From: Balanoglossus misakiensis
Lineage: Eukaryota > Animalia > Hemichordata
DNA length: 64,000 nucleotides
NCBI GenBank assembly: GCA_040954595.2
Contig: CM082577.2
Coordinates: 14,329,903-14,393,902 of the forward strand
Direction: 5' to 3'
The position numbers and the translations under genes were made by a program. Numbering within the stretch: the stretch's first letter is position 1; each line of letters begins with the position of its first letter. This document shows, one piece after another, positions 1 through 46,842 of this stretch. The notes below the pieces were generated by a model that ran no database searches, was not told the origin of the DNA, and saw nothing but the letters and a program-made list of their open reading frames with translations.

Positions 1-172
1 GTTAATCAGATTTTCAAAGTCCATCTAAAAATCATTTAATCTTTCCAGGGTGCGGTTTATGTTGGAGATAGTATCAGTCAGGCTATTTCTCAGAAAATCA
101 ATGAATGATCTGCGGACATCCCGAATAATGTGTTACCACAACGCTAGCCAGGAAGCACATGGGACATTTCAC

Positions 173-525
173 AATGAGGCAGTGAACACTGGGGGACCAG
201 ACTGACATGTTAACCAATCAGGGAGCTGTATGGTGAATAAATACATATTAATAAGACCTAACCTATAAGGTCCTGTATAATGAGGCAGTGAACACATGGG
301 GGACCAGACTAACACGTTAACCAATCAGGGAGCTGTATGGTGAATAAATACATATTAATAAGACCTAACCTACAAGGTCCTGCATAATGAGGCAGTGAAC
401 ACTGGAGGACCAGACCTACACATTAACCAATCAGGGAGCTCTAAAGTGAATAATGCATAGTAATAAGACCTAAGCTACAAGGTCTAGTGAATAATACATA
501 GTAATAAGACCTAACCTACAAGGTC
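173..525. repeat. Tandem repeat, ~106-107 bp unit, about 3.3 copies
   Basis: AATGAGGCAGTGAACAC...CCAATCAGGGAGCT...TAATAAGACCTAACCTA recurs at 173, 279 and 386, with a partial fourth copy. Confidence 0.85.
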
Positions 526-720
526 CCTCCAATCAGCGAGCCGCAAGTGGACCTAAGATTACCAGATCGACCAATCACAGATGTCGGTACTTATGTCTTG
601 GACCTGACTTATGAAACAGGACTACTACAACATCCGCCGAACATTTAGCAGATTTCTTCAGAGATAAATTACATCAGTCACTATATCTCGCATCTTTTAT
701 TTCTGCAGGTATATTGTAAA

Positions 721-3700
721 ATGGCGTTTAAGGCTGTATCGTGGATGATACTCGTACTCGTAGTGGTATTTCCCGACAATGCGTTACTCACAGACGAACG
801 TGCAGGAACCGATCACAAAGTTGGTCAGTATTAATCTTCGCTCATTGATATACGGGTTTTGTTGACTACCTTAGTTATTCTGACGACAGTTCGATCGGAA
901 GGATAACATTTTGACTAATCCCCACGTTTCGCCGATCGTAATGCTCACTCCCACTACTTTACATATTTGCATGAAATACCGTAAACATATCGCTCTCACC
1001 TGAAAACTATTTACGGTAATGAGCACGTGACTCGTTTGCATCGTTCCGTACCGAAATTGCTCAACAAGAACTATTGCATCTAATTTGCTTATCACGTGTT
1101 ATAAATACTACTTTTATTTCGCGGGCAACAACAAGGTAATTGACAGTACATATACAATAGATAAAATTAAGTAGGGTGCATCTTATTTAACTTGATAAAA
1201 ATGTACTGACTAAAGATTAAGTGTAAGGGAGCCGTAAATGCACCACTTAACATGTTTTATTTAATAAAGGTGATAGGTGAAACGTTTCTAGGGTTCAGAA
1301 CATTATTCCTACCGGGACCTGTTCATGCACCGCATGAAGCTGTTTTGTCACAAAACGCCACGTCAACTTTGATCAATAATTTATGGAATAATCATACTCC
1401 CCTATACAAAGTATCCATTGACATATGCAGATTAAATAATAATAGATTCTCAGTGGGTTGAACACGCGGAAATGAAGTCATCCGAATGATTAAACACGCC
1501 CTTTTGACCATGTATAGGTATATTCAAATTAGAGGTGACAGCTATGACAATTTACCTTTAATTCTGCCCCGGTATTGTCGTCATATAGGCCTCAGGCTAA
1601 ATTCACTTCCATATCGTCTATCCATTTTTGTGTGTTACAGTCGGGACTTCATCGCTTAATTTTACCTAAACGTCTATAATGATTCAAAGATGATGATTTT
1701 TTTAGATTTTTTTATTTCTAGCGAATCGGCCATCGAAGGATTGCTATGACATTTATCAGTTGAACAAAGAAGCCCCAAGTGGCGTATACACTGTGCAACC
1801 CATGGACAACGCAACACCATTCCAAGTCTATTGTGACATGGAAACAGATAACGGAGGGTGGACGGTATGTAGGAATATCATCAAACACCTGTTTCGTTAA
1901 AAATAAAACGTTGCTCCGACAGAAAAAAAACACATTCAACCAAAGATGTAAAACTATAGTACATGAACCAGGTGAAAGCTAATTTGATAACATTACTCAT
2001 GGTATATGTTATGATTTTGCAATTCAACTATTTGCAATTGTCTGGATTTCACTCGAAAGTAATTCCTATGCATATTGTGTACACTATAGTGCAGCGATGA
2101 AGGCTTTAACGATATTACACCAATTCCTTTGATACTAAGGTCTTCCAGAGAAGACGCGATGGTCTCTTAGATTTCTACCGCTACTGGAATGCCTACAAGA
2201 ATGGATTTGGGTTTCCTGCTGCCGAGTTCTGGCTAGGAAATGACAGACTTTATCGATTAACAAATCAACAGACTTATGAACTCAGAATCGACATGGAGGA
2301 TTTTGAAAACGAAACTAGATACGCCAAATATGATGAATTCGCCATTGGTGATGAATTCAGTAAATATAAACTGGCCCTTGGCGAATATACCGGAAACGCA
2401 GGTTAGTAGACATTTGTTTCAACATTCAATTGCAAGCCTGACTCAAAAACAATGTTGTTCGAGAGGGCGCTGCCCTGGTTCCCTGCCCCATTCCCACCGC
2501 TGGCTGCGCTACGCTAAAGGGAAAGGGTCAGGCACGGGCTATTTCTCTCATTGGAGTACGGACATTGGAGGCATCCATCTAGTTTATGATCATGTGGTCT
2601 TTGGTTCATTATAATATGCTGGCCAGGTTTTAGGCCAAGACAGCGGCCCGTACCTGACCCCTTTCCCTTTAGCGTAGCGTAGCCAGCGGTGGAAATGGGA
2701 CATGGGACCAGACTATGGGTAGATGTGTTTCTTAACAAAAGGGGCGTATGTTATACTCATAGTCTGGTTCCCTGTCCCTATTCTACGCTGATGGCGCTAC
2801 ATTCACGAAAGGGTCAGGCATGGGCCATGTAATCCATTTAAGTGTCCTAGTTAGACAATAAACTTTTACCAGATTTTAGCGGCATTGAATTTGAAATTTC
2901 TCCGTAAAATTGTTGACTATTTTTTTTCCATTGTCAACAGGCGGCGTTTACAGTTTTGACAATGTTTACCTTCTGTAGCTCAATATGTACATGTATTTCG
3001 TCATATTTGATGATCAACATACGGAGTCGATCTCATTAGCGCCGCAAATTTTCTTAAACGGTTTTTCAACTTCCCCACACAAGCAACACATCATTGAGTT
3101 TATCTTTATCGGTGTTTTAGTAGCCATGATGGTCTCAGTGATGTACATGTAGGTATAATAGTTCGATAATATGAGACTGAAGTTATGTGACAGTCCGACA
3201 TCTTGGTCGGGATCCCGTCCATAATGGCGGCCCATTCCTCAGGGACACTTTCTCTGAGCAGCGCAGTCAGCGGGAATAGGGCAGAGAATAAGGAGGCGGG
3301 GGACCCGACAACCTATACTCCCAAGGGCAGGTACAGCATAGTCAACCACCAGCCTCCCCCTCCCCCGCCCCAAATTGAGCAAGTAATAAATCTATGGCTG
3401 GGCAGAGTCTACGATGCATGGGGAGAACAGGATGTGCCCTCGAAGGACAGATTTTCCAGTCAACATGCTAGACTCTCTCACAACCCCTCTCGTCGTCAAT
3501 GCAGGCTTATGGACTTATTGCATGTGTGCCATGGCGAGAGGTTCGCTACACAACACCATATGGGGCTTCTCCTTTGCTAAACAGTTGAGGGCGTGTCAGT
3601 GAAGAGTCTTGTAGCGAACCGTGGGCTGTGAGAGAGTCTATCAACATGCAAGCATACATCTCCATTTTCACACAACATGCACTCTCTCTGTCCGTGAAAC

Positions 3701-6304
3701 GCATTTAGGCAGCATACGGATTAAATTAAACACACTTTTGAAGAAGAAAAAAACTACAGCTTTTTAAATTAGTCCATAGCAACCAATCATGATCAAAACA
3801 GTGAAAATTTGGGTTCCTTTGGACGATCGTAGAAGCTTATAAATATTGAATTTGCGCGCCATTGTTTTGGCCTGCATTTGCACAATCAGTTGTATACATG
3901 TATGTCACTCCTGTATCTAGGGATGTACGGCATTTGTTGGACAGAAATTTCCTTGCGCAATAAAGGTCAGAGAAGAGATCAATAAAACTATATTTTGCGA
4001 TTTTTTTCTCAATTTGTTACCAATTTTTCATATATATCTCAAAAATATGTCAAAAATCTAACACGTGAAATATTTCAATACACTTCCGCATTTCCGTATT
4101 CTAGCGTATAAGTTTCACCCATTACATATCACTTAATAAAGTGTCCGTCATGCCGTTCACAACTGTTGATATTTGGGGTAGAAGAATTTGTGAGACTTAG
4201 TGGGGAGCATACTTACAATAGATCATTAATATTGTCACATTGTCAGATATACCAGTCAACATGCTAGACTCTCTCACAACCCCTCTCGTCGTCAATGCAG
4301 GCTTATGGACTGATTGCATGTGTGCCTGGCGAGAGGTTCGCTACACAACACCATATGGGGCTTCTCCTTTGATAAACAGTTGAGGGCGTGTCAGTGAAGA
4401 GTCTTGTAGCGAACCGTGGGCTGTGAGAGAGTCTATCAACATGCAAGCATACATCTCTATTTTCACACAACATGCACTCTCTCTGTCCGTGAAACGCATT
4501 TAGGCAGCATACGGATTAAAACACACTTTTGAAGAAGAAAAAAAACTACAGCTTTTTAAATTAATAATTGCTAACTGCATAATCGGATATAATAATTTGC
4601 GTAGTCCTTAGCAACCCATCATGATCAAAACAGTGAAAATTTGGGTTCCTTTGGACGATCGTAGAAGCTTATAAATATTGAATTTGCGCGCCATTGTTTT
4701 GGCCTGCATTTGCACAATCAGTTGTATACATGTATGTCACTCCTGTATCTAGGGATGTACGGCATTTGTTGGACAGAAATTTCCTTGCGCAATAAAGGTC
4801 AGAGAAGAGATCAATAAAACTATATTTTGCGATTTTTTTCTCAATTTGTTACCAATTTTTCATATATATCTCAAAAATATGTCAAAAATCTAACACGTGA
4901 AATATTTCAATACACTTCCGCATTTCCGTATTCTAGCGTATAAGTTTCACCCATTACATATCACTTAATAAAGTGTCCGTCATGCCGTTCACAACTGTTG
5001 ATATTTGGGGTAGAAGAATTTGTGAGACTTAGTGGGGAGCATACTTACAATAGATCATAAATATTGTCACATTGTCAGATATACCAGTCAACATGCTAGA
5101 CTCTCTCACAACCCCTCTCGTCGTCAATGCAGGCTTATGGACTGATTGCATGTGTGCCTGGCGAGAGGTTCGCTACACAACACCATATGGGGCTTCTCCT
5201 TTGCTAAACAGTTGAGGGCGTGTCAGTGAAGAGTCTTGTAGCGAACCGTGGGCTGTGAGAGAGTCTATCAACATGCAAGCATACATCTTCATTTTCACAC
5301 AACATGCACTCTCTCTGTCCGTGAAACGCATTTAGGCAGCATACGGATTAAAACACACTTTTGAAGAAGAAAAAAAACTACAGCTTTTTAAATTAATAAT
5401 TGCTAACTGCATAATCGGATATGATAATTTGCGTAGTCCTTAGCAACCCAACATGATCAAAACAGTGAAAATTTGGGTTCCTTTGGACGATCGTAGAAGC
5501 TTATAAATATTGAATTTGCGCGCCATTGTTTTGGCCTGCATTTGCACAATCAGTTAGTTGTATACATGTATGACACTCCTGTATCTAGGGATGTACGGCA
5601 TTTGTTGGACAGAAATTTCCTTGCGCAATAAAGGTCAGAGAAGAGATCAATAAAACTATATTTTGCGATTTTTTTCTCAATTTGTTACCAATTTTTCATA
5701 TATATCTCAAAAATATGTCAAAAATCTAACACGTGAAATATTTCAATACACTTCCGCATTTCCGTATTCTAGCGTATAAGTTTCACCCATTACATATCAC
5801 TTAATAAAGTGTCCGTCATGCCGTTCACAACTGTTGATATTTGAGGTAGAAGAATTTGTGAGACTTATTGGGGAGTATACTTACAATAGATCATAAATAT
5901 TGTCACATTGTGATATTGTTGCCTTTAGCTGCAGTACTTCATTTATGTGCTTCCGTTTTGCTGTAAGATAATTCGAAAAGGTACTTCTGAATATACTTCA
6001 GTGCCCTAATAAAACACTGAAGAGGTTCTGTTCTGTCTTTTCGTCTGCAGGAGATAGTCTAACATATCAAAATAATTACAATTTCACAACAAGAGATAGG
6101 GACAATGACGGACGCACGGCAGAAAACTGTGCCGAAACGCACACTGGGGCATGGTGGTACAAATATTGTCATGCATCCAATTTGAATGGTCGATACCTTG
6201 GCGGAGAGACGGAAGAGTACGCCGATGGGATAGTTTGGTATACATGGAGAGGGTATTATTATTCTTTGAAGAAGACCGAGATGAAAATAAGACCTGCTCT
6301 GTAG
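721..6304 (+). CDS. Secreted fibrinogen-related domain (FReD) protein, ficolin/MFAP4/tachylectin-5-like; exons 721-823, 1722-1864, 2140-2401, 6051-6304
   Basis: Manual splicing with phase-compatible GT-AG introns gives the signal peptide [17 protein letters not shown]. FReD motifs follow: [91 protein letters not shown]. Confidence 0.95.
2472..2715. mobile_element. MITE family A (~245 bp, ~65-bp TIRs) in FReD intron 3; a further truncated end at ~2760-2826
   Basis: CTGGTTCCCTGCCCCATTCCCACCGCTGGCTGCGCTACGCTAAAGGGAAAGGGTCAGG is inverted at ~2652-2713 and ends in AGAC-TA. A second, reversed copy lies at 19771-20028. Confidence 0.75.
3456..5912. repeat. Near-identical tandem triplication of a ~800-830 bp intronic unit
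   Basis: CCAGTCAACATGCTAGACTCTCTC starts at 3456, 4252 and 5084. The bodies align almost base for base; copy 1 lacks a ~40-bp segment. Confidence 0.92.
3469..3640. mobile_element. 172-bp MITE with TIR TAGACTCTCTCACA and 9-bp TSD TCAACATGC (Mutator-like by TSD length); copied at 4265-4435 and 5097-5267
   Basis: TCAACATGC|TAGACTCTCTCACA...TGTGAGAGAGTCTA|TCAACATGC. The same right end also occurs at ~9624-9655. Confidence 0.75.
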
Positions 6305-21092: not shown

Positions 21093-23788
21093 GCCGGTTA
21101 TCCATGACAAGGTTGACACATGCGCATCGCTCTGCTGGCGTAAATGACCCCACCAAAGACATTTAGACAACCCCGAGACAATTTGGTTTGACACGTTGGT
21201 TGCACGGTTGAACGCTTGGCTCAGTTTATCGTACAAAGGTAAGTGTTCCGGCCTTTTCTTATGGTAGAATTTACAAAGATACATCTTACGGCAACCAAAA
21301 CTATAACATTGAGAAACAGCGTTGTTACTGAGTCATATATAGGTATTTTTTCTTTAAGTTTATTACTTAAACTCCTGGGGGTTTTTTTAGGAAGTAGTCT
21401 TTCTTTCGTACGTGAGATGCCACAAAATGTTCAGTTGTCGCCGTGAAATTTATTACCGTCGGAACAGTTGGTATCTTCCGACCGCATTCTCTCGCCTGTA
21501 TGTCACGTTGCCCTAGTTATCGCTTTTCTGGGGGGATCCTTGTCCTTAGAGCACCAGCGATCGAGGTCAACAACCGATGTGACCTCGGACAATACTCTCC
21601 ACGTCCCAGCCCCCACTTTTTTATAGGTCACCTTAAAAGTTCGATTGTGCTATACCTCTACTTTCATCTTTACAGTGAAAGCTGCAGAGAATTTAAATTA
21701 TTTTCAACAGTTGACACCATTTTATCTCTATGCAGACGTGACTGAAAATGACTGACTTCGAATTTTCCTCTCTCACCGCAACACTGGTTTTACTGACTAC
21801 AATAACCGCCATTATTATTTGGTTAGTATGTGACGTATTTGATCTGACATTTACCCTTTTCCTTGTCTATATATTGACTTGTTCTGCTTTCAAAGCATAC
21901 AGCAGTTCCCAATGTTCTGTCTGTGACATAATCTGTATATGTGTACCATTGTGTAATGTGCAGACCCCACGCTGGCAGCTTTGATATGCTTGAAAAGGCT
22001 TCGGTATTTTTGGAGAGTACTCAATTCTGGAGGTCACTCAGTCTGTGGTTTACTGCGTAAAGTGGCCGGGGTCAGACCCTGGCCTGACCTTACGGTCAGG
22101 CCTGACACAGACTAAGTGACAAAACACAATTGCTCTCAGCCCAAGCTAAGAATAAGACAAAGACGGTTACAATACAATTCTGATAAAAGATGTTCCCCTG
22201 GGAGTTGAGCTTGCGTGCTAAATGCTGGGTGTTAGCGCCAAATTACAATTTGGCGCGAATATTCGCCTAGCAGCTAGGCCGAAAATGGGCCCTTATTTAA
22301 GTGTCATGACACCACTGTTGATGAAAAATGAGTTCTCATTCGGACTTGAAATAAATTCCCCCTAAAATCAACGCTGACTTTACACAATACGCGGTGTTGA
22401 TAAGCTGCATGAATACCCGGCATTCCATAACGCTTCAGGTACCTTTCTACCCGCCTGTAATCAAGAGCTTTAAACACTCATTTCCAGGTGGTCTGTCTCA
22501 CCGTTTACATTCTTTGCGAACTGCAACGTTTCTGGGCCGAGACCATGGCCGTTTGTTGGCAACGTGATCCATCTTTATGGTGGTAAAACACTTTCCATAA
22601 AACCGTGATGGAAATGATACGCCAGTATGGAGACGTATTCTGGTAAGTTAATTCTAAATTGTCCACTGTATAAAGGCTTTATTTAAATATGCCCAGATAT
22701 GAGCGTGAACAAATACGAGTCGTCTGCGATATGGTAGGTCTACAGGTCGAGCTTAATTACAATGTACGCCATCATAACATTACGATACACCCAATTGAAC
22801 TGCTATGATAAAGTAAAACATTTGCAATTGTACCCGTGAAAAGTCCAAAGCTCACTTGGTCAATTGCATGGCCAGTTTCAACGACAAACACAAGCAATAC
22901 AGCACAAAGCAACACAGATCAGAATCAAGTACGTGTAAGAAAGACATATGGAACAAAGACATAAAACCGCATGAGTAAACAACACCAGCAATACTTTACC
23001 CGGCGGTAGAGGGCGACATCAACGATGTAAACGTTAAAACACAGTGCGGCAAAGCTCCGTGTGTAACGCAAGCGACGTTTATATGCATTTGAAACGCCGC
23101 CGATTTTTGAATGACGACAAGAATGACGTCCATGTGATCAATAAATGTTTGTCATTTACAGTTGGTATGAAGGTATGGCTCCTTTCATTACGATTACTGA
23201 CCCGAAGTTGCTGAAAGAGATTCTTATCAGACACTTCAGCAAATTTCAGGATAGAAATGTGAGTGTCAAATTTCTTTTGCTATTAGTTATAGCATGTAAT
23301 TATAGGCTACATCTGGCGGAGAGAACAATATAATTTTAAATGTGGTAAGATGCCGTACAGAACGCCCTTTCCGTTCGTCGATAGGTTCAAGGCGCCCAAA
23401 CTCGCCGTGTATAGGTATTCACTTTCACTGCGGACAGACCCCCCTCAAATGTAAACAAAAAAGATGTCTGCTCACTGTGTACCGTGTTTCAGCTGAGCAG
23501 TGATGATCGATCGTACCGGTGCTTTGAAACCCAAATAATATGCAACGCAAAAACTAACGGAGATGTTGTGAAAATACCGCGAAGTATGCATTCGGACATT
23601 CGCGTCCGCACCGCCCTCCTCTACGCATCGGACAATACGCGGCGATAATGTCCTGGTACCCCCATGAATACTTTGCGATATTATCGTAATAACCCCATAA
23701 TAACACCACGTGTCATATATACAGACCACCCATTGCTGCGCGACACGTTGTCGACACAGTGAACTTGTTTTACGGTTACAGTGGATCG

Positions 23789-24252
23789 TACGGTAGCCCG
23801 TATGTGACAGACCAATTCACTAATTAAGTGTACACAACTTTAATTTTGTCCCGACAAAACTCTCTAATTGGTGGACACAACTCTAACTTTGTCGGACAAA
23901 ACTCTCTAATTGGTGGACACAACTCTAACTTTGTTGGACAAAACTCTCTAATTGGTGGACACAACTCTAACTTTGTCGGACAAAACTCTCTAATTGGTGG
24001 ACACAAAACTCTCTAATTGGTGGACACAACTCTAACTTTGTCGGACAAAACTCTCTAAATTTGTCGGACACAACTCTCAAATTGATGGACACAACTCTAA
24101 TTTCGCCTGACACAGCCCTTTATTTGTTGGACACAACTCTAATTTTGATGGGCGCAACTTTCTAATTTTGTCGGACACAACTCTTATTCGCGTGGACAAA
24201 ACTTTCTTTTGCTCAAGGCGGAAATTCACTATATATCCCACAATACAGTTCG
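23789..24252 (+). repeat. Left TIR (464 bp) built from 42-bp tandem subrepeats
   Basis: Unit AAAACTCTCTAATTGGTGGACACAACTCTAACTTTGTCGGAC. Reverse complement of 29017-29436, with one extra unit. Confidence 0.92.
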
Positions 24253-24334
24253 CGTCAACGTCACTGGATATTACTGCCATTTGAGTCTGATGCATGATGC
24301 AGGAGATGGAGTTACACTACATCCTTCAAACAAA

Positions 24335-26376
24335 ATGTCGAAATTTATTCGTGTAACTGACAAAGTCAGGACCGGCGAAGCAGTCGAACTTCCAACAGAG
24401 GAAAATGGGACAGTTTTACTCAGTACATTGGAAGGTCAGTTTCAGGTGAGGAATGCAGGAAAGGTGTTGGTCTATTTGGCAAAGTCAAATCTTTCCAGAC
24501 TTACAAATATGAGAAGACCTCCTCTGACTTCAGAAAACTGCCTTTTTCCAGTAGCAAGAAGAAATCAAAGCAAGAAGATGACATTGTTACTATAAATATT
24601 GGTGCCATGTCTTTCGATGAGAAAACAGGGAAACTGAAATCCCACTGGGGTAAACGTTTGCCTATAAAAGTTGAAAAAAATGCAAATTACTCAACAATTT
24701 TGGAAATTGGTTTGAGTAAATGGAAAGCTTTTGGGAGAAATTTTATCAAGGATGGCATGAAGTATTTTCTTCTCTTTGATGATGGCTCTAGAGCTCTTTT
24801 CATACCAGGAGAAGAGAAAAAAGAGTTTTTTACTCTTTGTAAATATAAAGAAGCTTTAGGTAAGGAGTACAAAAGAATATGCTTGTATCTCTGTGCAGAG
24901 AGTGATTTTGATAAATCGCAGGGATTTAATGATTGTGATGTAGGAGTTGATGATGAGTTGCTTTGTAATTATGATGTTGACGAAAGTAATTGTAATTATG
25001 ATGTTGACGAAAGTAATTCTAATTATGATGTTAACAAAAGTAATTGTAATTATGATGTTGACAAAAGTAAGAGGAGGAGAGTGAAATTGGGTGAGACGTC
25101 CAACACAAGTCAAACTCATGTAGTGTCTGATGATGGATATGCCATGCTTTTCAGTGATGACATTGGTGATCAATTCTCTGATTCCGAAAATGATGTCAAT
25201 CTAGAGTCTCCTAAATTCCCTGAAGAAATACCACTTGAAGATATTCTGAGTAATTTGGCAAAACAGATTAACCAAGAAAAAATATCAAAGTTTAACATTG
25301 CAAGGAATAATCTTTTTGAAGGTGTGAAAAGAGGGTTAAAGCGAAAGACATTTAGTCCTTGCAATAAAATCTCTGTCAAATTTACAGATGATGTGGGTTC
25401 CTCAGAGGGGGCTGTTGATGCTGGAGGCCCTATGAGAGAAATGCTGTCTCTCAGTGTGAGCTATATCACAAATTCTCAGTTGTTTGATGGTGATGAACAT
25501 CAGAAATACATTTCCTGTGTGAGCAAATGTATTGATGAGAATGAATACTTCTATGCTGGGCAAGTGATTGCCATGTCTTTACTTCATGGGGGTCCTCTAC
25601 CACATTGTTTTGCTGAGCACTTTTTTGATGCTGTTGTATTTGGGCCAGACAGTGCAAAACCTACATTGGATGACCTCCCACAGGATAGTTATGCTAAAAA
25701 TGAGTTGACAAAGTTGAAGAATGCCCCTTTAACTGAGGTTGATAGTGTGATAACTGGAAGCTTGGATAATTTCCTTGAATTAGCTGGGACATGGAAAATA
25801 ATGAGATGTGAAGATGACAAAGATAGGGTTATCCTGTCCACAGTAAAGTGGTATTTATATGGAAGGAACAGACCAGCACTTGACCAATTTAGAGACGGTC
25901 TGTCTACCCTTGGAGTTCTTGCAGCCATGCAGCAGTATCCAAATAGTTTCAAGTCAGCATTCTGCCAAAAAAGCATCACTCTCACAGCAGATATGTTTGC
26001 TGATGTTGACAGGGTAAAATACACAAGAAGTGAAATTGGATCTAATAGACACATTGTTGAAAGTAATGTATTATCCTATTGGGCAGACTTTCTTCAGGAT
26101 GTTGAAGAGGGTGAAGTTTCCAACATAACACTTTCACAAATTCTCATGTTCATTACTGGTTGCAGTGAATTTGTGTATGGATTAACATTAGAAATTCAAT
26201 TTCTACATCAAAATGAGGAAACTGGTACACCATCAAGGTTTCCTAAGGCCAATACTTGTGCTTGTATACTTCATTTACCTGTTATACATAAAACATACCC
26301 TGACTTCAAAAACGATGTTGCATTTGGCATTGCAAATGCTAAGGGTTTTTGGATATGCCTGAACATTAAAGTGTAA
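24335..26376 (+). CDS. Transposon-borne HECT E3 ubiquitin ligase (G2E3-like HECT) with an N-terminal TDP-43-NTD-like segment; two apparent 1-nt indels (~24443, ~26350)
   Basis: HECT motifs ISVKFTDDVGSSEGAVDAGGPMRE, YFYAGQVIAMSLLHGGP, LDQFRDGLSTLGVL, ILMFITG and FPKANTCACILHLP (catalytic Cys codon 26257-26259). The HECT frame is open from 24361. ATG 24335 in the adjacent frame encodes MSKFIRVTDKVRTGEAVELPTEENGTVLLSTLEGQF. Confidence 0.88.
24964..25068 (+). repeat. In-frame 27-bp tandem repeat (CNYDVDESN, about 4 copies) in the acidic linker of the HECT ORF
   Basis: TGTAATTATGATGTTGACGAAAGTAAT repeated with minor variants. Confidence 0.85.
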
Positions 26377-27049
26377 AATGAGACATAACTACAGTTTTTC
26401 ATCTATTTTCACACGGTGTCCAGACTCGGCCATTCACTGATGACCAAGCTTAAGTTCACACACTATTTTTAAACCTCAGAAGCAAGTTAAGCAAATTCTA
26501 TGTAATAAGATGTGCTGCTGTTTATGCATTCAACTGCCAAACAGTACACCTGGTATGCAAGAGATTTGATTTTGCCTTTTGGCAAGTGGTTTCACTGTTC
26601 AGGTGTGATAAATTTAGACAAAATTGTTCCAGATTTGTGCCAGAGAAAAAACATGGTTCCCAATGTCATCACTACAAATGTGCATGTGTTCATGTTGCCC
26701 ATTTATGAATGTCTATCAATGGACAAAACATTTTATTGGGAAATCAGTAAGAAAAGAGTAGTTTTTACCTTTTTTACTTCGTTCTCCTTTAAAAAGTGTT
26801 CACAATTCTGTTGAGCATCAGTTGTTTAAACCGATTCGTGTAGTAGTCACAAGTTTTAGAATAGAACTGTACTCTGTAGTATATTATATTGTGCTTGATC
26901 GACCAGTTTAGGGTTTAACCTTCTGTTAGATGTTTACTGTAACACTTGGAAATAAAAAATGATACTCTGTTCATAAATTAGTTGTGTATGTTCATTAAAG
27001 TGTGTGTGAACACCATTATGTCATGAAACGAGGTAATGCTGTACTAATG

Positions 27050-27075
27050 TCTGTGTGTGTGTGTGTGTGTGTGTG
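27050..27075. repeat. (GT)n microsatellite
   Basis: Run of TGTGTG seen directly. Confidence 0.9.
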
Positions 27076-27797
27076 AATATGACATAGTGTGTGACATTTG
27101 GGAATTATGACTTGCTAATTGACAGCTAATTTGCATATTTAATGATTCTATGCAATTAGCAATACAACTCTTGAAATACTGTTCTGATATTCATGAAATT
27201 TGCCAGCTTATACTGTTTTTTACACAGATCAAACAAAACCTCACTGCTGCCATTTTGGCAATAATTTCAGATTTTCAACATTAATTTGGTGTATTTGCAA
27301 TATATCATAAAACTACAGTAAGAATCCCAAACTGATCTTAGGGGAGAACCATTTGATTTTTTGGGTGGGGGGGGGGGGGGGGTTATTGCAGAAGGAAACA
27401 AATTCATTTGCAATGCCATGTTTGAAATGGAGTAAAGAATGTCACACAAGTTAGAAAATCTCATTCTTTCATTTTTAGGCACTTGTCAGTTTATGAGCAG
27501 TTTATTCTTGTCCACCGTTCATTTGAATAATTTGGCAATCAAAATGATAGGTAAAATGAACAAATCTACGCTATTTTGATGTTTTATGAATATATTTTAT
27601 TATATTCAAAGACAATCTTACTACCATGTTTGCTTGGATTACTACCAATTTAAAAATGTGGTAGTCACAACTGATTGCTGCGAAAAATGTTTATTTCGAG
27701 CCATGTTTTGCAGCAAGTATATCACAGACTGGACTGGAAAATGTCGCTCTCCCGTTGGTGAAGGAAGCGCCCTCAATCGACGGGTTTACATGTCTAA

Positions 27798-29009
27798 TTA
27801 TACACCATCATTTGCGCACGTAAGTAAATGCTCGTACAGCTCTTTTGCCTCGCGCCAATTTGCTGGTTCGGACAGGTTTAAATATCGAAACACATATTGG
27901 AAATACTCCTGGTATTCATTATTATAATCTACTTCAATGATTTGGGTTTCTGCATAATTTATTTCATGTTCTGGTACAGGCAACATCAAATTGTCAGTGC
28001 CACCATGGTGCTCTGGGAGGAAATACAATGAATCAGGTCTCCCACTGACGGTTTCATGTCGAGATTTTCTTATGTAGTGTGTGTTCCAATTTTCCTTCAC
28101 ATGATTTAAATCTTCTTGGAGGAGACGGGCAAAACAAAACCACAAACACTCCTTATGTAGTGTGTTACTACTGTCAAAGGTACCCTGTGCTTCAAAATCT
28201 TTAAAAAGATTGATCCACCATGTCGAACGATTTCTGCGCAGAAACGACCACCATGCCTCAATTCTTTGATTACGTTGTGATGCAACATATCTATGTGCAT
28301 CTGAGTTATCGCGAAAGAAACACTGAACCGCTGCAACTGTGCCATTTTCAGTACCCAAATCAGTATCTAGTTCTATAGGACACCCTCCAAACTCACGCAC
28401 AGCTTGTAAGTAGTATGCAGCCACATTGTCAGGCAAGTTATTTGAACGTGTAACATACAACCATAAAATCTTTCTGCTGTATCCGTCAATACACCCGTGT
28501 ATTGGGAAGCCAAAGGGCTTTAGTTTGTCGTACCCGTCCATATGCCACACACAGTTGGGTCCTGGGCACAAATACTCCCTTCTTTTAAGACGGTGTGTTC
28601 TCCGTAGTTCACTTCCTTCTGGGTCTAATTCCCTCAACATTTCTTGAACTACAATTCTAGGCACATGGATGCCTTTCAGCTGCAGGGAATGCCACACTGT
28701 TCGATACCCTCCTATACATCCAGGACCATCCAATAGCTGAATGACAGAGTCTCTGACGACACTAACATCGTAATCGGGAGATCTTCGCCTTAAATTCAAC
28801 CGTTGCAATCGTCGTAACAGCGTTCTGCGACTCATATAAACGTCGCAGTATTTTGACAGATATAATAGAATTTCATTGTACGTATACCCCCTATAAAAGA
28901 AATAGGTGATGAGGCCTTCTTCATCGTAGTTGGCGACCGAGTGGCTGCTCATTTCTGTGCACATCGGCGACACTCGATAAGGCAAGGTTGGTGTGAAGAC
29001 GTCGTCCAT
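27798..29009 (-). CDS. IS3/IS481-like integrase-core DDE transposase, 403 aa, intronless and intact
   Basis: N-terminal HTH-like region (GYTYNEIL...SRRTLLRRL), then RREYLCPGPNCVWHMDGYDKLKPFGFPIHGCIDGYSRKILWL, DTDLGTEN and SQRNQRIEAWWS. About 33 residues separate the second D from E. Confidence 0.93.
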   Translation of the reverse strand: MDDVFTPTLPYRVSPMCTEMSSHSVANYDEEGLITYFFYRGYTYNEILLYLSKYCDVYMSRRTLLRRLQRLNLRRRSPDYDVSVVRDSVIQLLDGPGCIGGYRTVWHSLQLKGIHVPRIVVQEMLRELDPEGSELRRTHRLKRREYLCPGPNCVWHMDGYDKLKPFGFPIHGCIDGYSRKILWLYVTRSNNLPDNVAAYYLQAVREFGGCPIELDTDLGTENGTVAAVQCFFRDNSDAHRYVASQRNQRIEAWWSFLRRNRSTWWINLFKDFEAQGTFDSSNTLHKECLWFCFARLLQEDLNHVKENWNTHYIRKSRHETVSGRPDSLYFLPEHHGGTDNLMLPVPEHEINYAETQIIEVDYNNEYQEYFQYVFRYLNLSEPANWREAKELYEHLLTCANDGV

Positions 29010-29016
29010 TTTAAAT

Positions 29017-29436
29017 CGAACTGTATTGTGGGATATATAGTGAATTTCCGCCTTGAGCAAAAGAAAGTTTTGTCCACGTGAATAAGAGTTGTGTCCGACA
29101 AAATTAGAAAGTTGCGCCCATCAAAATTAGAGTTGTGTCCAACAAATAAAGGGCTGTGTCAGGCGAAATTAGAGTTGTGTCCATCAATTTGAGAGTTGTG
29201 TCCGACAAATTTAGAGTTTTGTCCGACAAAGTTAGAGTTGTGTCCACCAATTAGAGAGTTTTGTGTCCACCAATTAGAGAGTTTTGTCCGACAAAGTTAG
29301 AGTTGTGTCCACCAATTAGAGAGTTTTGTCCGACAAAGTTAGAGTTGTGTCCACCAATTAGAGAGTTTTGTCGGGACAAAATTAAAGTTGTGTACACTTA
29401 ATTAGTGAATTGGTCTGTCACATACGGGCTACCGTA
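29017..29436 (-). repeat. Right TIR (420 bp)
   Basis: Reverse complement of 23789-24252 apart from one 42-bp unit, a 2-bp indel and isolated substitutions. Confidence 0.92.
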
Positions 29437-32400
29437 GGATCGGTTCGCTCAGCAATCCTTGTGGTGCCAGATTATATTGTGTATAAACAATTCTTCTATT
29501 GGTAGAGTCCGTTGAAAAATCCACGTGGCGTGAAGGGATTACTGTTCATGGAAGGGAAACGATGCGATGAAAGGAAATGCGGACACTTTTGTCACCGACT
29601 TTCAGCTCGGGTAAGATTAAGGAGGTAAGAAGACCAACACATCATTCACAGTCAAAATCTATAAATCGAAATCTTACAATTACCGGTACATCGAAGACAG
29701 TTAAGGTTACTAGTGTGTTGTTATTGCTGTTCGTACATTGTTTATGGTGTTTTTGCTGGCCAATATAAAACTTGAACAATGCAATAATGTCTCTGCAATA
29801 TGTCAATAATCATTAAAACAACAACAACAACAACACTGTATGTTGTGGTGATATGTTGTTTACCTTCAATTTTTCAGATGTCAAATCTAGTTAATGACAT
29901 AACTTCAAGACTGTTGGATATCCTTGAAACATGCAGCGTCAGTGGTAACCCAGTAAATGTTCGAAGGTGTGTTGGCCAATGTTGCAGATGAGAAATGATA
30001 CCAGACAACATGAAATGATTTACCATTCACATACTCAGATAGGGGCAAAGACTCCATTAATACAGCAATCTACCACAGGATCATACATAAAGTATAACAT
30101 GTTAAAGTTTAAAACATACAACACACGTACAGAATCAAGGTAAGCGATCAGCGCGATTATGTTTGACAAACAGAAAAAGTATTATTTTTTATTTCAGATA
30201 CTTTTTCCAATTATCTCTCCATAGGGTATTTGGCAACTACGCACTCGATGTCATTGCATCTGTTGCCTTTGGTATAGATATAGTGTCACAGACGGACCTT
30301 AATAATCAGTTTGCAGAAAACGCTAGAAATATGTTGTCACGGTTACCTGGCAGGACGGGCGTGGCATCTTGGTTTCTCGGTAAGCGGCGTCTTGGTTGAA
30401 TCTAGAATGCGCCTGTTCTCGTCCCTCTCTGTATGTACATCGAAAACAATGTTACAAAACATTTGCCGGTACATTGCTAGAGAAGACTGTAACCTTGTGC
30501 CACCGAATATTGTCCAAATGGAATATCCATTTAATGCAGTTACTTTATAGAACTAAGAATTAAAACTATCAAATGTATTTTAGCAACATAAGATTTTCCG
30601 ACCTCCATGAGACCTCTATGGTATCTCGCGAGGCTAAAAATTACATGTATCTTTCAACTCTAAACTCACCTAGTTTGATACAAAGCTTGACTTGTATTCA
30701 CTACCTAGCAACTCATTGCTACGATAATTAACATAGTCTCGCGATATCTCGAAACTCATTTCGATTCAGCATTTTCTTTGCCATTTCAGCGATGTTTCCG
30801 ATGATCAGATTTCTTGCTGAACGGATTGCGGCGGCGACAGAAAGGAAGCCGTTGCAGTTCTTCGATCAATCACTTGACGAAGTTTTAGCTGTGAGACAGG
30901 CATCGGGATCAGTAAGTCCTCCATTATACAGATTGCATCTGTATACTATAAGGTGTCACTGACACATAAGATAAAGATTCATCTTAGCAAATCTAATTGT
31001 ATCGATAAAGTTGTTTTCGGTAATTTGAGACTGTGCACGTACTTGACACTTTTGCAAAAAAATGAGAATGCAACTAAAATTAGTTTGTCGCTTCCCATTT
31101 GGAATAAAACCCCTAATGACTAGAGCATCATCATTTTCTCCCGAAATGATGAAATGATTGTTTGGAATGTTACTTCCACTTCGACACTCTTATCATCTTC
31201 ACTTGAAGGAACGACGGGACTTTCTTCAAGTTCTGCTCGAGGCAGCTGAAAATCACATCATGGAAAGCAACGACAGTGAGTCAATGCAACCGAACGAACG
31301 TGAAGTCAAATTAGCAAAGGCAAAGGAGAAGACAACACTAAGTAGGGCAGAAATCAAGGCTCAGCTTATGCTGTTCCTATTAGCAGGTAATTCATACTGA
31401 TGCGACCCAAGATTCTTTTCATAAGCAAACTCGGAAACGAGGCTACTGGAGGGGTTAGCGCCCTCACATTTTAAAATAAAGAGGGTCTGTAGTTCTATAT
31501 TTCCGAGATCCATTATTTTGAATGACGTCTAAGTTTGACAGCTATCGTCCTATTTGGGGAAGGTCACCTGCGCTAGTCTACTAAAATGGTGCGCTGTGAC
31601 ATTATTATTAAATGTGTACTGTCCCTTTAACACATGCCCCTTTAACATAATGAAACTAAAGAGACTATATGAATGTCGTTTGGCAGGTTACGAAACATCA
31701 GCCCTTACACTTTCGCACTGTACTTATTTACTTGCAAGACATCCTGAGGTTCAAGACAAGTTGATTAAAGAAGTGGACCACGTGTTAGAAGGAGAGGTAA
31801 CCACTTTTAAATGAATGGTCCCTTATTTGAGTATTACAGAAGTGGGAAATTTGCCGCTACATTTTGTAATTAGTCCTGTTTAAACAGCTGTCGGAATGAA
31901 GCAGGCATTATTTTACCGGCTGTCCTAGCTGATCTTACGACTTTTTATACAAATGAATTCAACAATATCGAGTTGATATCCGCGATAGTAAATTTGGAGG
32001 ATATCGTTCAGCCCTAAAATGTTTACAGGGAGAACATAATTTTTTTTGAATGATTCAGTTTAGTCTCACACTTAAACCAACCCAATTTTACATGCGAGGC
32101 CATTCATGCAGATCTTTGTGTGGATTCAGGTATTGATTTCACCATTGTGTGTTTTGTATGTTAGCAACAGTAAACTTGAACACACATTTACTGTTTTCTA
32201 CAGAGCAAGTTGGACTACAACTCAGTGAACGTCCTTCCATACCTGGACATGGTGATATCTGAAACGCTGCGCCTTTATCCAACGGCACATAGGTAAACAG
32301 TGGAAATACAATACAGACATTGTCCATAGACAAACATAACAACGGAAGACAGAAGGACGATTAAACTGACATTGTTGTACATGCGTAGAAACGAACCAAA

Positions 32401-35501: not shown

Positions 35502-38500
35502 ATGGCAACTTGGACATTTCTTAGGCTGTTTCCAGCTTCACGCACGACCAGAGGAACAGCAACAGATAAGCAAGAGCTGCAAGGCACCGATCTTCGTCGT
35601 AGTTTCTTTATTCTGAGCTTCCTCTGTTCGGTAATCGTTGTTGGTTTAATCATTGCAACGCCGGCTGATAATATCAGATATACGCAACAAACCCTGCAAG
35701 TGAGTACACGTTTTCATACATTTCTGTCATTCTGTTATCGGACAAACTTCACTGTTTCATTTTACTTCAATTTAATCCACATACAAAGCGGCTTGTGCCT
35801 AATGTACATTGGTAAAGTATGATCGAAACTCAGATTTTACATCATTAAAGGTAGTATGTGTCTCGGGGACAGATTATCAGAAGTATGATCGTTCTCCAAA
35901 CCTTTCAATCTTTGGGAACTGGGTGTTCGCCATCTTGTAGTTATAAAAACCAATACTTTCAATTTTCTCCCAAGAGATTAACACATAGATTTGTGATTAT
36001 TTTGAATTCACATTTGAGGTAAATTTGCTGTCTCATTCAAAAGTAATATTCTCAATTTTACGAGGACATAATCTAAAGTTGCCTTGGGCAAAATCTGAGA
36101 AAAAGTTTGACTTTAATTTTCGAGACGCATTATGCCTTGAAGCTCCCAATAACTGCCACTTGTGGCACCCATTTAATCTATAAAATATTTCAATCTTCTT
36201 ATCCAAAGTCGACAGACATGTGTGCATACCACGCTAGTTGTATACTCTTACAATGGGCGGCTGAATAAATTTGTACGGCACCCGTTTATTCTTCAACTTG
36301 CTTATATTTTACATGTACAGCTGGACTTGCCCCAAGTCTGTGGGCCTCTCTATGTCATAATAAATTAAATACATTTCAGAAATTAGTTTGTTCCGAGTCT
36401 CAATAGCGTGTGTGGAGTGAACGCGTAGGTCTTGGGATCGCGCAGGCCCACGCGCTTGCATTTGGTGGGCAGTAACCTAAACTCAACTCGGTGCAGAAAC
36501 TGTCTCAAGCAAGCACACGAAAGGTAACTTTAAAATGATAACATGTGGAAGTAGTTTTAGGATGTAACGGTAAGGCATTCCACAACTGAGGCGTACAGAC
36601 GGAAAAAAGGTCTGTCGAATTTAAAAGCAGTACGGCCAATAGGTTATTAGGGCTTTAAACAAGTTCATTTAGTGTTCGGGAATCAACTTGATGGTTACGG
36701 GATTTAAACTCGAACCACCTTTACTAACCAACGTAGGAAGCGATTGCATAATACCATCAATGTGTATCGTTCAGACATAATTTACTACGAAATTGCATTG
36801 TGCGACAACCTTTTCCATTTTTTTCAGATCAGCGATCGAATCGGACGTGACGATAAATCTACAGTTCCTACTCCGAGTGGTCGATATCTGATGCCTGTGT
36901 TATTGTTTCCTCGATCGGGTCCACAGAACAACTACCTGAGATTGAAGAGCCTCCTTACACTGGCAGTTTTACAAAATTGGACCTTAGTTTTATACCCAAT
37001 TCGAAACCACCACACCCAGAACAGTACTAGCGCAGTCAGAAATATCAGTGAAGTTTTCGATGTTGACCTTCTAAAACAACTTGTGCATGTTATTACACCT
37101 CACGAATTCCACGAGAAGTGCAACGGAAAAGCCATAGTTGTCGATTGGTACAGGGAAGGCCGAGGCGCTTTGTTGAAAGAGATACATGTCGATACCGGAT
37201 TGCATTTTCAGAAAATAGCAGTCGAGAAAAACAACGCCAGTAAAAGATGTAAATTCCCGCGATGCGATGCATTATTTGCCAAATATCCATGTGTCATTTA
37301 TCGATCCCTGCGTACGGCGACCTTTACGAGTATTCGAAGTGCACAGATCGCCGAAAAAGTCGAACAATATCTTCGAAAGGCACCTTACATTCGGCAGATG
37401 GGAGAAGAGGGGGTGCGCCAGATTTGTGACGGCCGCCCGTTTCTCGCTTTTCACTGGAGAAATCGAACTGGAGAAAGGTAAATTATCACAGGGAGAATTT
37501 CTCATAGGAAGAGGTGGCAAATTTACTTGAAGACATAGAATCGAAGCGTATTGCACACTATGAATGTTTGCAAATTTAAACAGCAACACTGATTCTTAAA
37601 GTTAACTTTAGAATTTATTATAATGTGAGCCTTAACAACTCAATTTCTCCATCTCAGCTATTTCCTCATTCCCTTTCGGTAATCATGTCTAATTTACTAT
37701 TGGAATTCATGAGAAATCTCTGATTGGTCACATGCACTAAAATACAGGGACCTCTGTAATTGTGCATGTTGCTGTGATCCTTCGATTTTGACCACTCAGT
37801 GAAGGCGTTACATGACAAATCATTTACTTTACAAAGCAATGCAACAAAGGGGTTGATTTGGGCTGGCAGTGTCCGTTGATGAATGGGCTGTCTTTTGAGA
37901 TGAGTGACAAACTGTTTAATTTACCGACAGGTGCGAGACAGGGCGCAAGAAGAGAGGCTGTGAATTTGACGGACTAAATCCAATGAGTAAAAATCGACGA
38001 TTTGTGAAAGCCTTAAAAGACTTCATGAAAACGGTTAATCTGAGTTGTATGTACATTGCATTCCCCCCATTTTCTCAAGTGAGTATAACACTGTTCCCTG
38101 CAACGCATGTTGAAGGCTGCAACTATCAGGTACGATACAGAAGTAAACAATATGTCACCATGCTTGATGTTGTTAGCCAGCTGTTCAGAAAGTTCTACCT
38201 TAGAGAAACTACAGCACAGAAAAATGCTGACTCGGCATTTCATACCATCTTTTAAAGCCCCAATAGCTGCATTTTTTAATCGATAATTTACTTCAATTTT
38301 CTCCTCATCCTAAGTCGGCAGGCGACAAAATATTGCATTTGTGGAAATTCTAATACCCATTGTGCGCATATCACGATGGTTGTATATTCTTGCAAAGGCC
38401 GGTCGCGACTAAACGGGTATGTTCATTTAAAGGAACCATTGTAAGTTTGAGAGGAAAATCATGAAAATAACGAAACTAAATGTCAGCTAATTGGGCCTTT

Positions 38501-44019: not shown

Positions 44020-46842
44020 CGCCGATTGGCATATCTCCTCTCGCTCATTGTTGGAGCTTATTGCATTTGGTCAAATCTCCCGATGCGGACTAAACCTGAT
44101 ATTCTTATCAAACAGGACAATTCGGTGTAAGTACGCTTTGAACCGTATATTTTTGCACTGACGCAGGCATTCTGCAGCCGATTGTCTATGTATTTCTCAA
44201 AGGTTTATCGGCGAGTCACCAATAAGTCTCAGTCGATTGTCTCAAAACGTATCCGCGTTCTCGGCATCACCTACCAATTTTGATAAGTTGATGTATTTGG
44301 TTTTGCATGTGACACATGTGACATTAACCTGCAATGTTTCATTTGCAAACAAATTTCAATTATGTTTATTTGTTTCTCTTCAAAATAATAAACACTTGTG
44401 ATATTTCTTCTTGTACTCAAGTGATACCAACAAAATAATGGACTCTCGGTGGACACACAATAAAGGATATGAAGACCCATGGCGAAACAACACAACTGCA
44501 CCAAACCATAATGTATGTTTTGTCAAGACCAGAAAAACGGGAAGTACTACGCTATCGTCCATTTTGAATCGATTTGCCCTGTTACACAATCTGTCATTAG
44601 TATTAATGAAAGATAATAGACACAGTGGACATGTCAATATTATACCGATTCGTGAAGACAGTCCACGTAAACTGTTCCTTCCGCCCCTCGATGTCAAGCC
44701 AGGTGATTGGGACAACTACAAGTATAACATGATGACTGTACACGCCCGTTATAACAGATCAGCGTTCGATACATTCATGCACCCGGGCACAAAATACATC
44801 TCCATATTACGAGAGACGTGCTCACATTACGAGTCGGATTTCATGCATTATAAATTACCATCGGTCGTCAAATCTGCCAAAAAGAATATGCGTGACGAGG
44901 ACACCCTGAAAGAATATTTGAAAGAGCCGGAATTTTACTGGGCGAAAACAAAAAAAATGTACGGAAAGCACATCATGTTATTCACGCGGAATACGCTTGT
45001 CTCCGATCTCGGTCTTGACCATGTTTATCACAACAATACCAAGATTCTGACCGATTTCATAAAGAACCTTGAAGCTAAGATCGATTTAATGCTGATCACG
45101 GAATACTTTGACGAATCGATGTTGCTGCTCAAGAAACTATTAAACTGGAATTGGGACGACGTGATGTACCTGGCCAGGAACGCTCGCCCTGAAAATGCAA
45201 CCCGAACGACAATGACCGACGATTTGTGCGAAAGGATTGTAAAGTGGAATAGTGCTAATCATCAGCTATATACAACGTTCAATAAGAGTCTTTGGCAGCG
45301 GGTCGAAGCATATGGCTCAAACTGGGACGCTGACTTGGCCGAACTAAAACAACGCCTGAAACAGGCTGAGACTAGATGTTTAGTAACAAGCGAGTATAAA
45401 TCTGTCAGCCGCCGTCAACAAGTCCTTTACAAAACGCAGAATTCGTCCTCAGAATTTTGCAGACTATTTACGAAGTTAAATAATGACATAATACACGAAA
45501 CAATTAAAAAGCAGTCATCTGGATACTATTTTGCAAACGTCGAAGGTTGGTAGATTAAAATCACGATCATAATTATATTAGTCTTGTACATTGATTTTGA
45601 ACATTAGTGTACTATCATTACATACGCGATGTAAAATACTCGAGGGAGAAGGTTGTTGAGCAGATCGCACTGACCCGAGTTTGATAGCCAAAAAAATCAA
45701 CTATTATACTTATTCTTTCCAAAATTTGAATTGGGGTTTCTAATTTTCATTTGATTGCCTGACTGCAAATGTTTGTGTTGCTTCACTGTAGGTCGACAAG
45801 GTCGCATTTGTGGCTTCGAATACAAGTCCGATTGTGGATTCGAGTTTTCTGGTATGGGCGACTACACATGGACGTTTGATTCGGGACTAAAGATCAACGA
45901 CGTTACCACCAATTCTGAACATGGTAGGTTTTCAGTGCTTGTTGTTTGGGAAGGCGGAATGCATTCAGGTATCACGGTTTTCATCAACTTCACTGTCGGC
46001 ACTTATCGATTAAGTATCACACCAAGTAAAGTTGCAACGTTTTTACACATGTATTGTTGGACATCACATCAATGTTATAAAAAGACCAGATTCGTATATT
46101 ATGAGCATGAAGTCGTTTTCATCATGCTCTTATATAAGTGATTTTTACAACCCTGTATTCAGACGTCGGTTTAAATCATTACAGGTACGTTTTTGGTTAC
46201 CAAGTATCTGCCGAAGAAAAAAGCTAAAAGAAATCAAGGCGCAAAAAAAGCCCGTGTAACGATGCCAGAACTTGTAATTGGTAAGAGTTGTCTGAGTTTC
46301 TACTATTACACAGATTTTGGCGTGACGGCTGGAAAAACTACATTATGCGTCTGTTTGGTACGAGAACCCAAAGCAAAGTCGGAGGTGTGTTCGACTATTT
46401 GGAAAAGTACGGATTCGCCTAACCATTCTGGACAGTGGAACAGTGTGTCTGTCAATATAACGACAAGTCGTAAATCGCAGGTAAGTTTTGCATTTAAGAG
46501 AAATGTCATCTTTGTAGAATTACACAATGCTCTTGAATTCAAGTTTATGTATTGTTATAACGTTGACGAGCGTTTCGCGTCACCTGAATTTTTGATTTCC
46601 CCTTTAATTTTTTTAACCATCTGGAAACACTTGGAATATTATACATCCTGTTTTTTCTTGTTTCTATGCATCCACTTTCAATATTTTTGCCTTTAATTTT
46701 TCTTTGCCAGGTTGCATTTGAAGCGATTTCATCGGAGTTCCCCACACCCAGGGATAGTACCATCTACCACTTCGGTTTGGACGATGTGTCATTGAAACAT
46801 GGCCGACTTTGCGTACAAGACTCTTACTTAGAAGAACATTAA
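44020..46842 (+). CDS. Galactose-3-O-sulfotransferase (GAL3ST family) with a C-terminal MAM domain; exons 44020-44126, 44422-45545, 45792-45923, 46185-46480, 46711-46842; start-codon exon not identified
   Basis: TM exon RRLAYLLSLIVGAYCIWS. 5'-PSB motif FVKTRKTGSTTLSSILNRF, then YISILRE, DLMLITEYFDESMLLLKKLLNW and LYTTFNKSLW. MAM-like exons follow: CGFE..DCGF..W, SCLSFYYY, IWKS..GQWNSVSVNI, VAFEA..GLDDVSL..GRLC. Intron phases are compatible. Confidence 0.85.

Follow-up and report, generated by a model that had tools for sequence, protein, structure and literature searches.

A recently inserted IS3EU-type transposon of Balanoglossus misakiensis and the HECT ubiquitin ligase gene of its family

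We analyzed a 64,000-nucleotide stretch of the genome of the hemichordate Balanoglossus misakiensis (assembly GCA_040954595.2, contig CM082577.2, positions 14,329,903 to 14,393,902; hereafter the window), which contains a 5,648 bp IS3EU-type DNA transposon at window positions 23789-29436. Our overall reading, to which we give roughly even weight, is that the element is a recent insertion from a family whose conserved HECT-type E3 ubiquitin ligase gene faces the transposase gene, that the ligase gene is broken in this copy, and that the intact ligase likely ubiquitinates host proteins, aiding movement of the element or its escape from silencing. The parts of this reading are not equally firm: the action of the ligase is proposed, whereas the element, its empty site, the two lesions, the regular convergent pairing in relatives and the purifying selection on the ligase are observed. 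The ligase is supported as the element family's own conserved second gene and not a one-off capture.

This conclusion rests on relatives of the ligase in other DNA. A profile built from 33 HECT relatives was run against metagenome contigs, and the best 80 of the 104 loci obtained were analyzed (42 clusters at 88% identity). A transposase gene is present beside 19 of the 80, every time downstream and on the opposite strand, so that the two genes are convergent. Among loci with a complete HECT C-terminus (n = 46), a transposase was found at 14 of the 14 that have at least 2,400 bp of downstream sequence (10 of 10 clusters) and at 17 of the 21 that have at least 1,500 bp; the upstream side of HECT loci gave 0 of 22. 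At locus L073 terminal inverted repeats (TIRs; 252 bp, 99.6%) flank both genes, inverted repeats are found at both contig ends in L003, L004 and L012, and in the window element, L003 and L004 the ligase and the transposase start 8-123 bp inward of the TIRs. HECT scans found no loci in genome contigs and one weak locus in viral contigs that our own profile left unconfirmed, and a transposase scan of the viral contigs gave two marginal matches.

The ligase is also under purifying selection between families. Nonsynonymous and synonymous substitution rates (dN and dS) were computed for ten chosen HECT pairs, two of which come from one cluster. All seven pairs with dS of at least 0.18 have dN/dS values of 0.08-0.33 (bootstrap upper limits no higher than 0.62), and all three pairs with dS no higher than 0.07 have values of 0.49-0.98 with intervals that include 1, as expected of a gene that is selected while the element transposes and drifts once it has inserted. 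In both pairs that have both genes, HECT and transposase dS values are similar (0.18/0.22 and 0.38/0.36), and so are their apparent ages. An original prediction made from the letters of the window had taken the ligase for a dedicated second gene, to be given up if it proved to be a one-off capture or evolved neutrally between families. Neither is what we found, and the downstream and upstream counts together with the low dN/dS values bear the prediction out.

The boundaries and age of the window element were determined by comparison with two public runs, X1 and X2, of one sample containing the window stretch. The element begins with TACGG, ends with CCGTA and is flanked by a 6 bp target-site duplication (TSD), GGATCG, at 23783-23788 and 29437-29442. 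Its left TIR (464 bp, 23789-24252, plus strand) and right TIR (420 bp, 29017-29436, minus strand) differ by one substitution and by gaps of 42 and 2 bp that fall within arrays of 21-23 bp repeats, about 14 units of which make up the subterminal array of the left TIR (23850-24210). An X1 contig of the same species joins 23782 directly to 29437 with six letters that fit both sides (a single GGATCG), which demonstrates an empty allele and confirms the TSD; the flanks in that contig (780 + 1,308 = 2,088 bases) have zero differences from the window. A second insertion, read by eye, is indicated by a pair of loose ends in X1 where the TIR terminates, with the hexamer ATAAGG on both sides. The empty allele and the real TSD, with these loose ends, make the insertion at 23783-29442 very young. 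The extent, TSD, termini, TIR lengths and youth given in the original prediction all stand. A scan of the whole window for a 20-mer inverted repeat combined with a 6 bp direct repeat returned the element and three trivial palindromes within its TIRs. In X1 the contig depth is 117-167 over the element and ~45 over the flank, which hints at a few element copies, contig depth being a quantity from which no copy number can be derived. A stretch around a G-run in the element's spacer (27337-27385) matches many other contigs of the runs at loose ends and is probably a small dispersed repeat. An Rfam scan gave no matches.

The ligase of the window copy is encoded on the plus strand, where a HECT open reading frame (ORF) of 671 codons occupies 24361-26376 and converges with the transposase gene. 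In the hidden Markov model check proposed with the original prediction, Pfam recognizes the HECT domain (25219-26349) at 45.3 bits against a cut-off of 23.9 and the transposase as rva_4 at E 1e-32. The structure model of the HECT domain has a predicted local distance difference test score (pLDDT) of 90.7 and Foldseek matches it to HECT domains at E ~1e-13; it is 15-21% identical to solved HECTs. The catalytic cysteine of the PKANTC motif (26257-26259) aligns with the P-x-A-x-T-C of NEDD4L, and all 46 loci that extend far enough have it. N-terminal to the HECT domain are an unnamed ubiquitin-like (beta-grasp) domain of ~105 residues (24574-24921, model pLDDT 89.9) and an acidic linker encoded by a 27 bp coding tandem repeat (24936-25070, repeat family D3). 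The convergent HECT gene and its cysteine are thus present as predicted, but the prediction missed that the gene is broken, by two lesions, and a working two-gene transposase plus E3 system is therefore not supported for this copy.

The first lesion lies near the start of the gene. The ATG at 24335, which lies 83 bp inward of the TIR and is out of frame with the HECT ORF, begins the first third of a TDP-43_N-like domain (24335-24443; Pfam TDP-43_N E 6e-6, profile positions 1-32 of 74), whose product is 74% identical to residues 4-38 of the Ptychodera flava protein P0039. At 24443-24447 there is a deletion junction at which ~630 bp are absent and the frame is shifted; an X1 contig has 632 letters between these points, and the residues lost are present in P0039. 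The missing sequence is probably the rest of exon 1 plus an intron, the latter deduced from an acceptor-like loose end. The second lesion is an extra T in a run of five (26346-26350), where the X1 and X2 contigs have one T fewer; it shifts the tail (26346-26376), which reads GFWICLNIKV-stop and is five residues longer than the GFGYA-stop of the family. The Phe or Tyr at position -4 that is found in 36 of 41 relatives is lost from the window copy through this extra T and kept in its sister contigs, so the absence of the -4 Phe characteristic of HECT E3 ligases belongs to this copy and not to the family. Chain elongation by E6AP requires the -4 Phe (PMC6463701). The extra T may be a mutation or an assembly error. 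With the NEDD4 family, E6AP and G2E3 the ligase family shares the bilobal HECT fold, the catalytic cysteine and the C-terminal -4 Phe described in PMC6463701; it differs in having no WW, RCC1 or PHD/RING domains and in being encoded by a mobile element.

The transposase gene is intact, as had been predicted. It is a single exon of 403 codons on the minus strand (27798-29009), with its ATG at 29009, 8 bp inside the right TIR, and its stop at 27798, and its D158, D217 and E251 are invariant columns in an alignment of 41 sequences. Residue changes account for 7 of the 8 contig differences listed for the HECT frame and for 3 of the 5 listed for the transposase. The assignment to IS3EU/GingerRoot, also part of the prediction, follows from the published definition of termini and TSD (PMC10045372, PMC12730594): the TACGG..CCGTA ends fit TAYGG..CCRTA, the TSD is 6 bp, and the TIRs are far longer than 30 bp. 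By Pfam rva_4 and by-eye comparison with a published alignment, the protein has the core motifs WHxDGxxKL, GxIDGxSR, RxDxGxEN and NQRIExxW, and by eye its core agrees with those of IS3EU-1_HM, IS3EU-1_DR and IS3EU-4_CGi. TA..TA ends, a 6 bp TSD, TIRs and an IS3/IS481-like DDE core are common to the group (PMC10045372, PMC6839031), whereas the 420-464 bp TIRs of the window element differ from the 100-150 bp TIRs of clubmoss GingerRoot (PMC6839031).

Is the pairing of ligase and transposase fixed? The two gene trees were compared over 16 loci that have both genes. Approximately unbiased (AU) tests reject each gene tree on the other gene's alignment (p 1.6e-4 and 8e-40), which excludes strict co-evolution of the two, and the correlation of HECT with transposase distances is weak (Mantel rho 0.26, p 0.06). 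HECTs of one clade adjoin transposases of both the DGYDKL and the DGNHKL subgroups, and L006 and L017 combine HECTs of the window's broad clade with transposases of another IS3EU subgroup that are 28-29% identical to the window's. Eight profile-confirmed transposase loci came from genome contigs (L001, L002 and L084-L089), animal-like contigs within bacterial metagenome-assembled genomes (MAGs) that we infer to be host DNA. One of the eight has a convergent HECT gene (L084), two have a convergent kinase gene (L002, L088) and five have no HECT gene, L087 and L089 of these five being unchecked for another second gene. L002 (7068-15128) and L088 (7883-17213) hold complete IS3EU elements with TIRs and 6 bp TSDs (GAAAAG and GTTATC, respectively), in which the second gene, a multi-exon Ser/Thr/Tyr kinase, faces the transposase. 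The L002 and L088 contigs are filed under a Nitrospirales MAG and have the appearance of animal host DNA. Judged from these sequences, the pairing is regular yet not fixed, and the ligase has re-paired with different transposase lineages over long times. HECT is therefore not the sole IS3EU partner, given the kinases in L002, L088 and rust fungi (below) and the re-pairing. The tree comparison suggested with the original prediction thus yielded common recent splits but rejected each topology on the alignment of the other gene.

A number of observations weigh against this interpretation. The 2,400 bp cut-off was one of six thresholds tried; 61 of the 80 HECT loci have no transposase, mostly because the contig ends, and L037 and L043, where the HECT match is truncated, have none in 5.6 and 8.5 kb of downstream sequence. 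The TIRs of L073 have no matching TSD, and the distance from TIR to gene start is readable in three of seven loci (the window, L003 and L004). Since three recent splits (99-100% support) are common to both trees and intron-free HECTs are mostly paired with intron-free transposases, there has been some co-descent, which also fits the transposase being the ligase's substrate. Finally, no TIR pair was seen at L006, L017, L077 or L084, so the discordant pairs are unproven as single elements.

The IS3EU group and its two-gene layout are already published. An ancestral IS3EU is drawn as encoding two proteins (PMC10853768, Figure 8 legend), and in Repbase the 2p suffix of protein names (e.g. the IS3EU-1_CGi and -4_CGi transposases) implies a curated second protein. 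Rust-fungal IS3EU families carry alpha-kinase and TET/JBP genes, and passenger genes there shift between transposon lineages (PMC12730594). These elements have in common with the window element TAYGG..CCRTA ends, the 6 bp TSD and a gene for a protein-modifying enzyme opposite to the transposase; the window element differs in its HECT E3 with ubiquitin-like headers, its animal host and the lack of any TET/JBP gene that we could see. HECT is mentioned nowhere in the main texts of PMC10045372, PMC6839031 and PMC12730594, and neither the supplement of the last nor bioRxiv 10.1101/2021.09.26.461848 yielded a HECT second gene. A HECT second gene in IS3EU was not found among the papers listed by full-text searches, a scope that excludes subscription journals, Repbase Reports and bioRxiv supplements; a selected, exchangeable HECT second gene, which we did not find in print, is thus the new part, Repbase curation aside.

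Relatives of the ligase vary mainly N-terminal to the HECT domain. The top Foldseek and VIA matches of the ubiquitin-like domain are all ubiquitin-like folds; the best has Z 8.5 (rmsd 3.2, 87 residues aligned), close to a level common among small domains, although every top row is the same fold. The domain has 711 relatives at E <= 0.001 among 50%-identity representatives, and among the matches listed our HECT profile finds a HECT domain in 30 of the 34 that are at least 400 residues long, which Pfam HECT at E 0.001 had missed. The header preceding it is TDP-43_N in the window copy and P0039, SAM in Acropora and a zinc ribbon in L003. SAM domains form head-to-tail chains. TDP-43_N also assembles into head-to-tail chains (PMC5830921). 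In Acropora P0334 and P0340 the order is SAM, ubiquitin-like stretch, UBX-like stretch (by eye) and HECT, and in L003 the ligase (132-797, plus strand) and the transposase (3702-5003, minus strand) both open with a CxxC...CxxCG zinc ribbon immediately internal to the TIRs. A divergent HECT subfamily (P0188, P0203, P0252, P0275, P0307 and others) has the same ubiquitin-like domain, a catalytic motif of the form P-x-V-x-A-C and the -4 Phe, and escapes Pfam HECT at E 0.001. A ubiquitin-like header shared by the HECT and kinase second genes was considered but is not supported: a 156-sequence profile detected neither the L088 nor the L002 ORF at E < 10, and the hints of such a header are weak (a same-looking top Atlas cluster with low recognition, and hhalign P of 0.02 and 0.56). 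Pfam found no kinase in the 77 of 150 ubiquitin-like-domain relatives scanned.

How might such a ligase serve the element? Ligase and transposase each begin a short distance inside one of two near-identical TIRs; a single type of repeat would thus drive the pair, and the two genes may be co-expressed from the same TIR promoter sequence. The transposase would bind the 21 bp subterminal repeats and cut and paste with a 6 bp stagger. The ligase, apparently an oligomerising header (such as TDP-43_N or SAM) followed by the ubiquitin-like domain and HECT, would be charged with ubiquitin on its cysteine by a host E2 and would transfer the ubiquitin to a host factor of chromatin, silencing or repair. 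A diffusible ligase would act in trans, so that a copy whose own ligase gene is dead, as in the window, could still be mobilised; such action would account for a dead-ligase copy that is polymorphic and young. Degenerate Styx copies are mobilised in trans (PMC10853768). We favor a host substrate, since the ligase is found with distantly related transposases through re-pairing and kinases can take its place. The slot for the second gene is best understood as an interchangeable module for protein modification, with HECT here and kinases elsewhere. A bolder version, which we advance tentatively and hold to be somewhat short of an even prospect, is that IS3EU elements are two-part machines in which a swappable weapon (HECT, Ser/Thr/Tyr kinase or alpha-kinase, with ubiquitin-like headers) disarms a host silencing or repair factor, and that a large share of the 'G2E3-like' expansions of marine animals consists of these genes. 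An E3 ligase that a transposon encodes and selection maintains would, if real, be a helper protein of a kind new to transposons, and knowing its substrate would identify the host factor by which such elements are held back.

The strongest alternative is that the ligase targets the element's own transposase, either degrading it (self-limiting transposition) or removing it from DNA after strand transfer, as ClpX removes MuA. The layout for co-expression and the co-descent of recent ligase-transposase pairs speak for it, but closely related HECTs adjoin transposase subgroups only 28-29% identical, the trees are incongruent and kinases stand in the ligase's place in other IS3EU elements, and we think it possible but rather unlikely. 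A complex prediction of the HECT and ubiquitin-like domains with the transposase, made without alignments, scored 0.00 against a mark of 0.34 and speaks neither for nor against such a contact. It is less probable still that the ligase is retained for the benefit of the host, as an innate-immune or stress effector spread by transposons, and not for transposition. The varied headers (TDP-43_N, SAM with the UBX-like stretch, zinc ribbon) do recall fast-evolving effector families, and gene annotations exist for several copies in Acropora and Saccoglossus; against this, near-identical copies drift, the window copy is broken twice while polymorphic, and selection is seen between families, as it is for transposon genes.

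The closest named relatives of the window HECT carry the label G2E3-like. G2E3 has N-terminal PHD/RING fingers. In Pfam none of the window ORFs, P0039, P0011, P0331, P0334, P0337 and P0340 matches a PHD or RING family, and TDP-43_N or SAM was found in the window ORFs, P0039, P0334 and P0340, so the window ligase and these relatives lack the fingers expected of G2E3 orthologues. The idea that this element alone picked up a host G2E3 gene or exon, which then evolved neutrally, draws on that label and on the capture of host gene fragments by clubmoss IS3EU/GingerRoot (PMC6839031), but it is largely refuted and hardly credible in view of the missing fingers, the transposase beside all 14 informative relatives and the purifying selection on the ligase. 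In a 37-sequence tree that did not include canonical G2E3, proteins named G2E3 or G2E3-like from Saccoglossus, Ptychodera, Acropora and Paramuricea, placed by sequence alone with their own flanks unseen, interleave with transposase-adjacent HECTs, and the Acropora proteins that NCBI names 'G2E3' share 72-80% identity with such HECTs. The searches for protein relatives spanned 211-674 and 871-2485 residues, canonical G2E3 (706 residues) falling outside both; in the longer range the only fusions were NEDD4-like and one RCC1-HECT, at E >= 1e-6. The suggestion that some G2E3-like annotations are transposon cargo therefore survives as a lead, through the interleaving in acorn worms and corals, but not beyond that, the flanks of the labelled genes being unseen. 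In a hadal sea cucumber, an expansion of 'G2E3' to 20 copies has been interpreted as a DNA-repair adaptation (PMC9700323), and G2E3 is among the copy-number-variable repeats of Cottus (PMC5638112); the ligase genes of these transposons may matter for how G2E3-like genes are annotated.

The insertion site of the element is intronic, in a CYP3-like cytochrome P450 gene (23145-33536, plus strand), ~60 bp upstream of the acceptor at 29504. The P450 exon after the element has 5 bp more than an X2 contig (at 29560), a frameshift, and the haem motif reads FSHDPRNCIG; on account of these two features the allele carrying the element is probably a pseudogene. Other host ORFs in the window encode an O-fucosyltransferase (36708-37481), a galactose-3-O-sulfotransferase (44402-45553) and a MAM domain (46175-46696), and a repeat-like stretch at ~59840-60396 is open in two frames.

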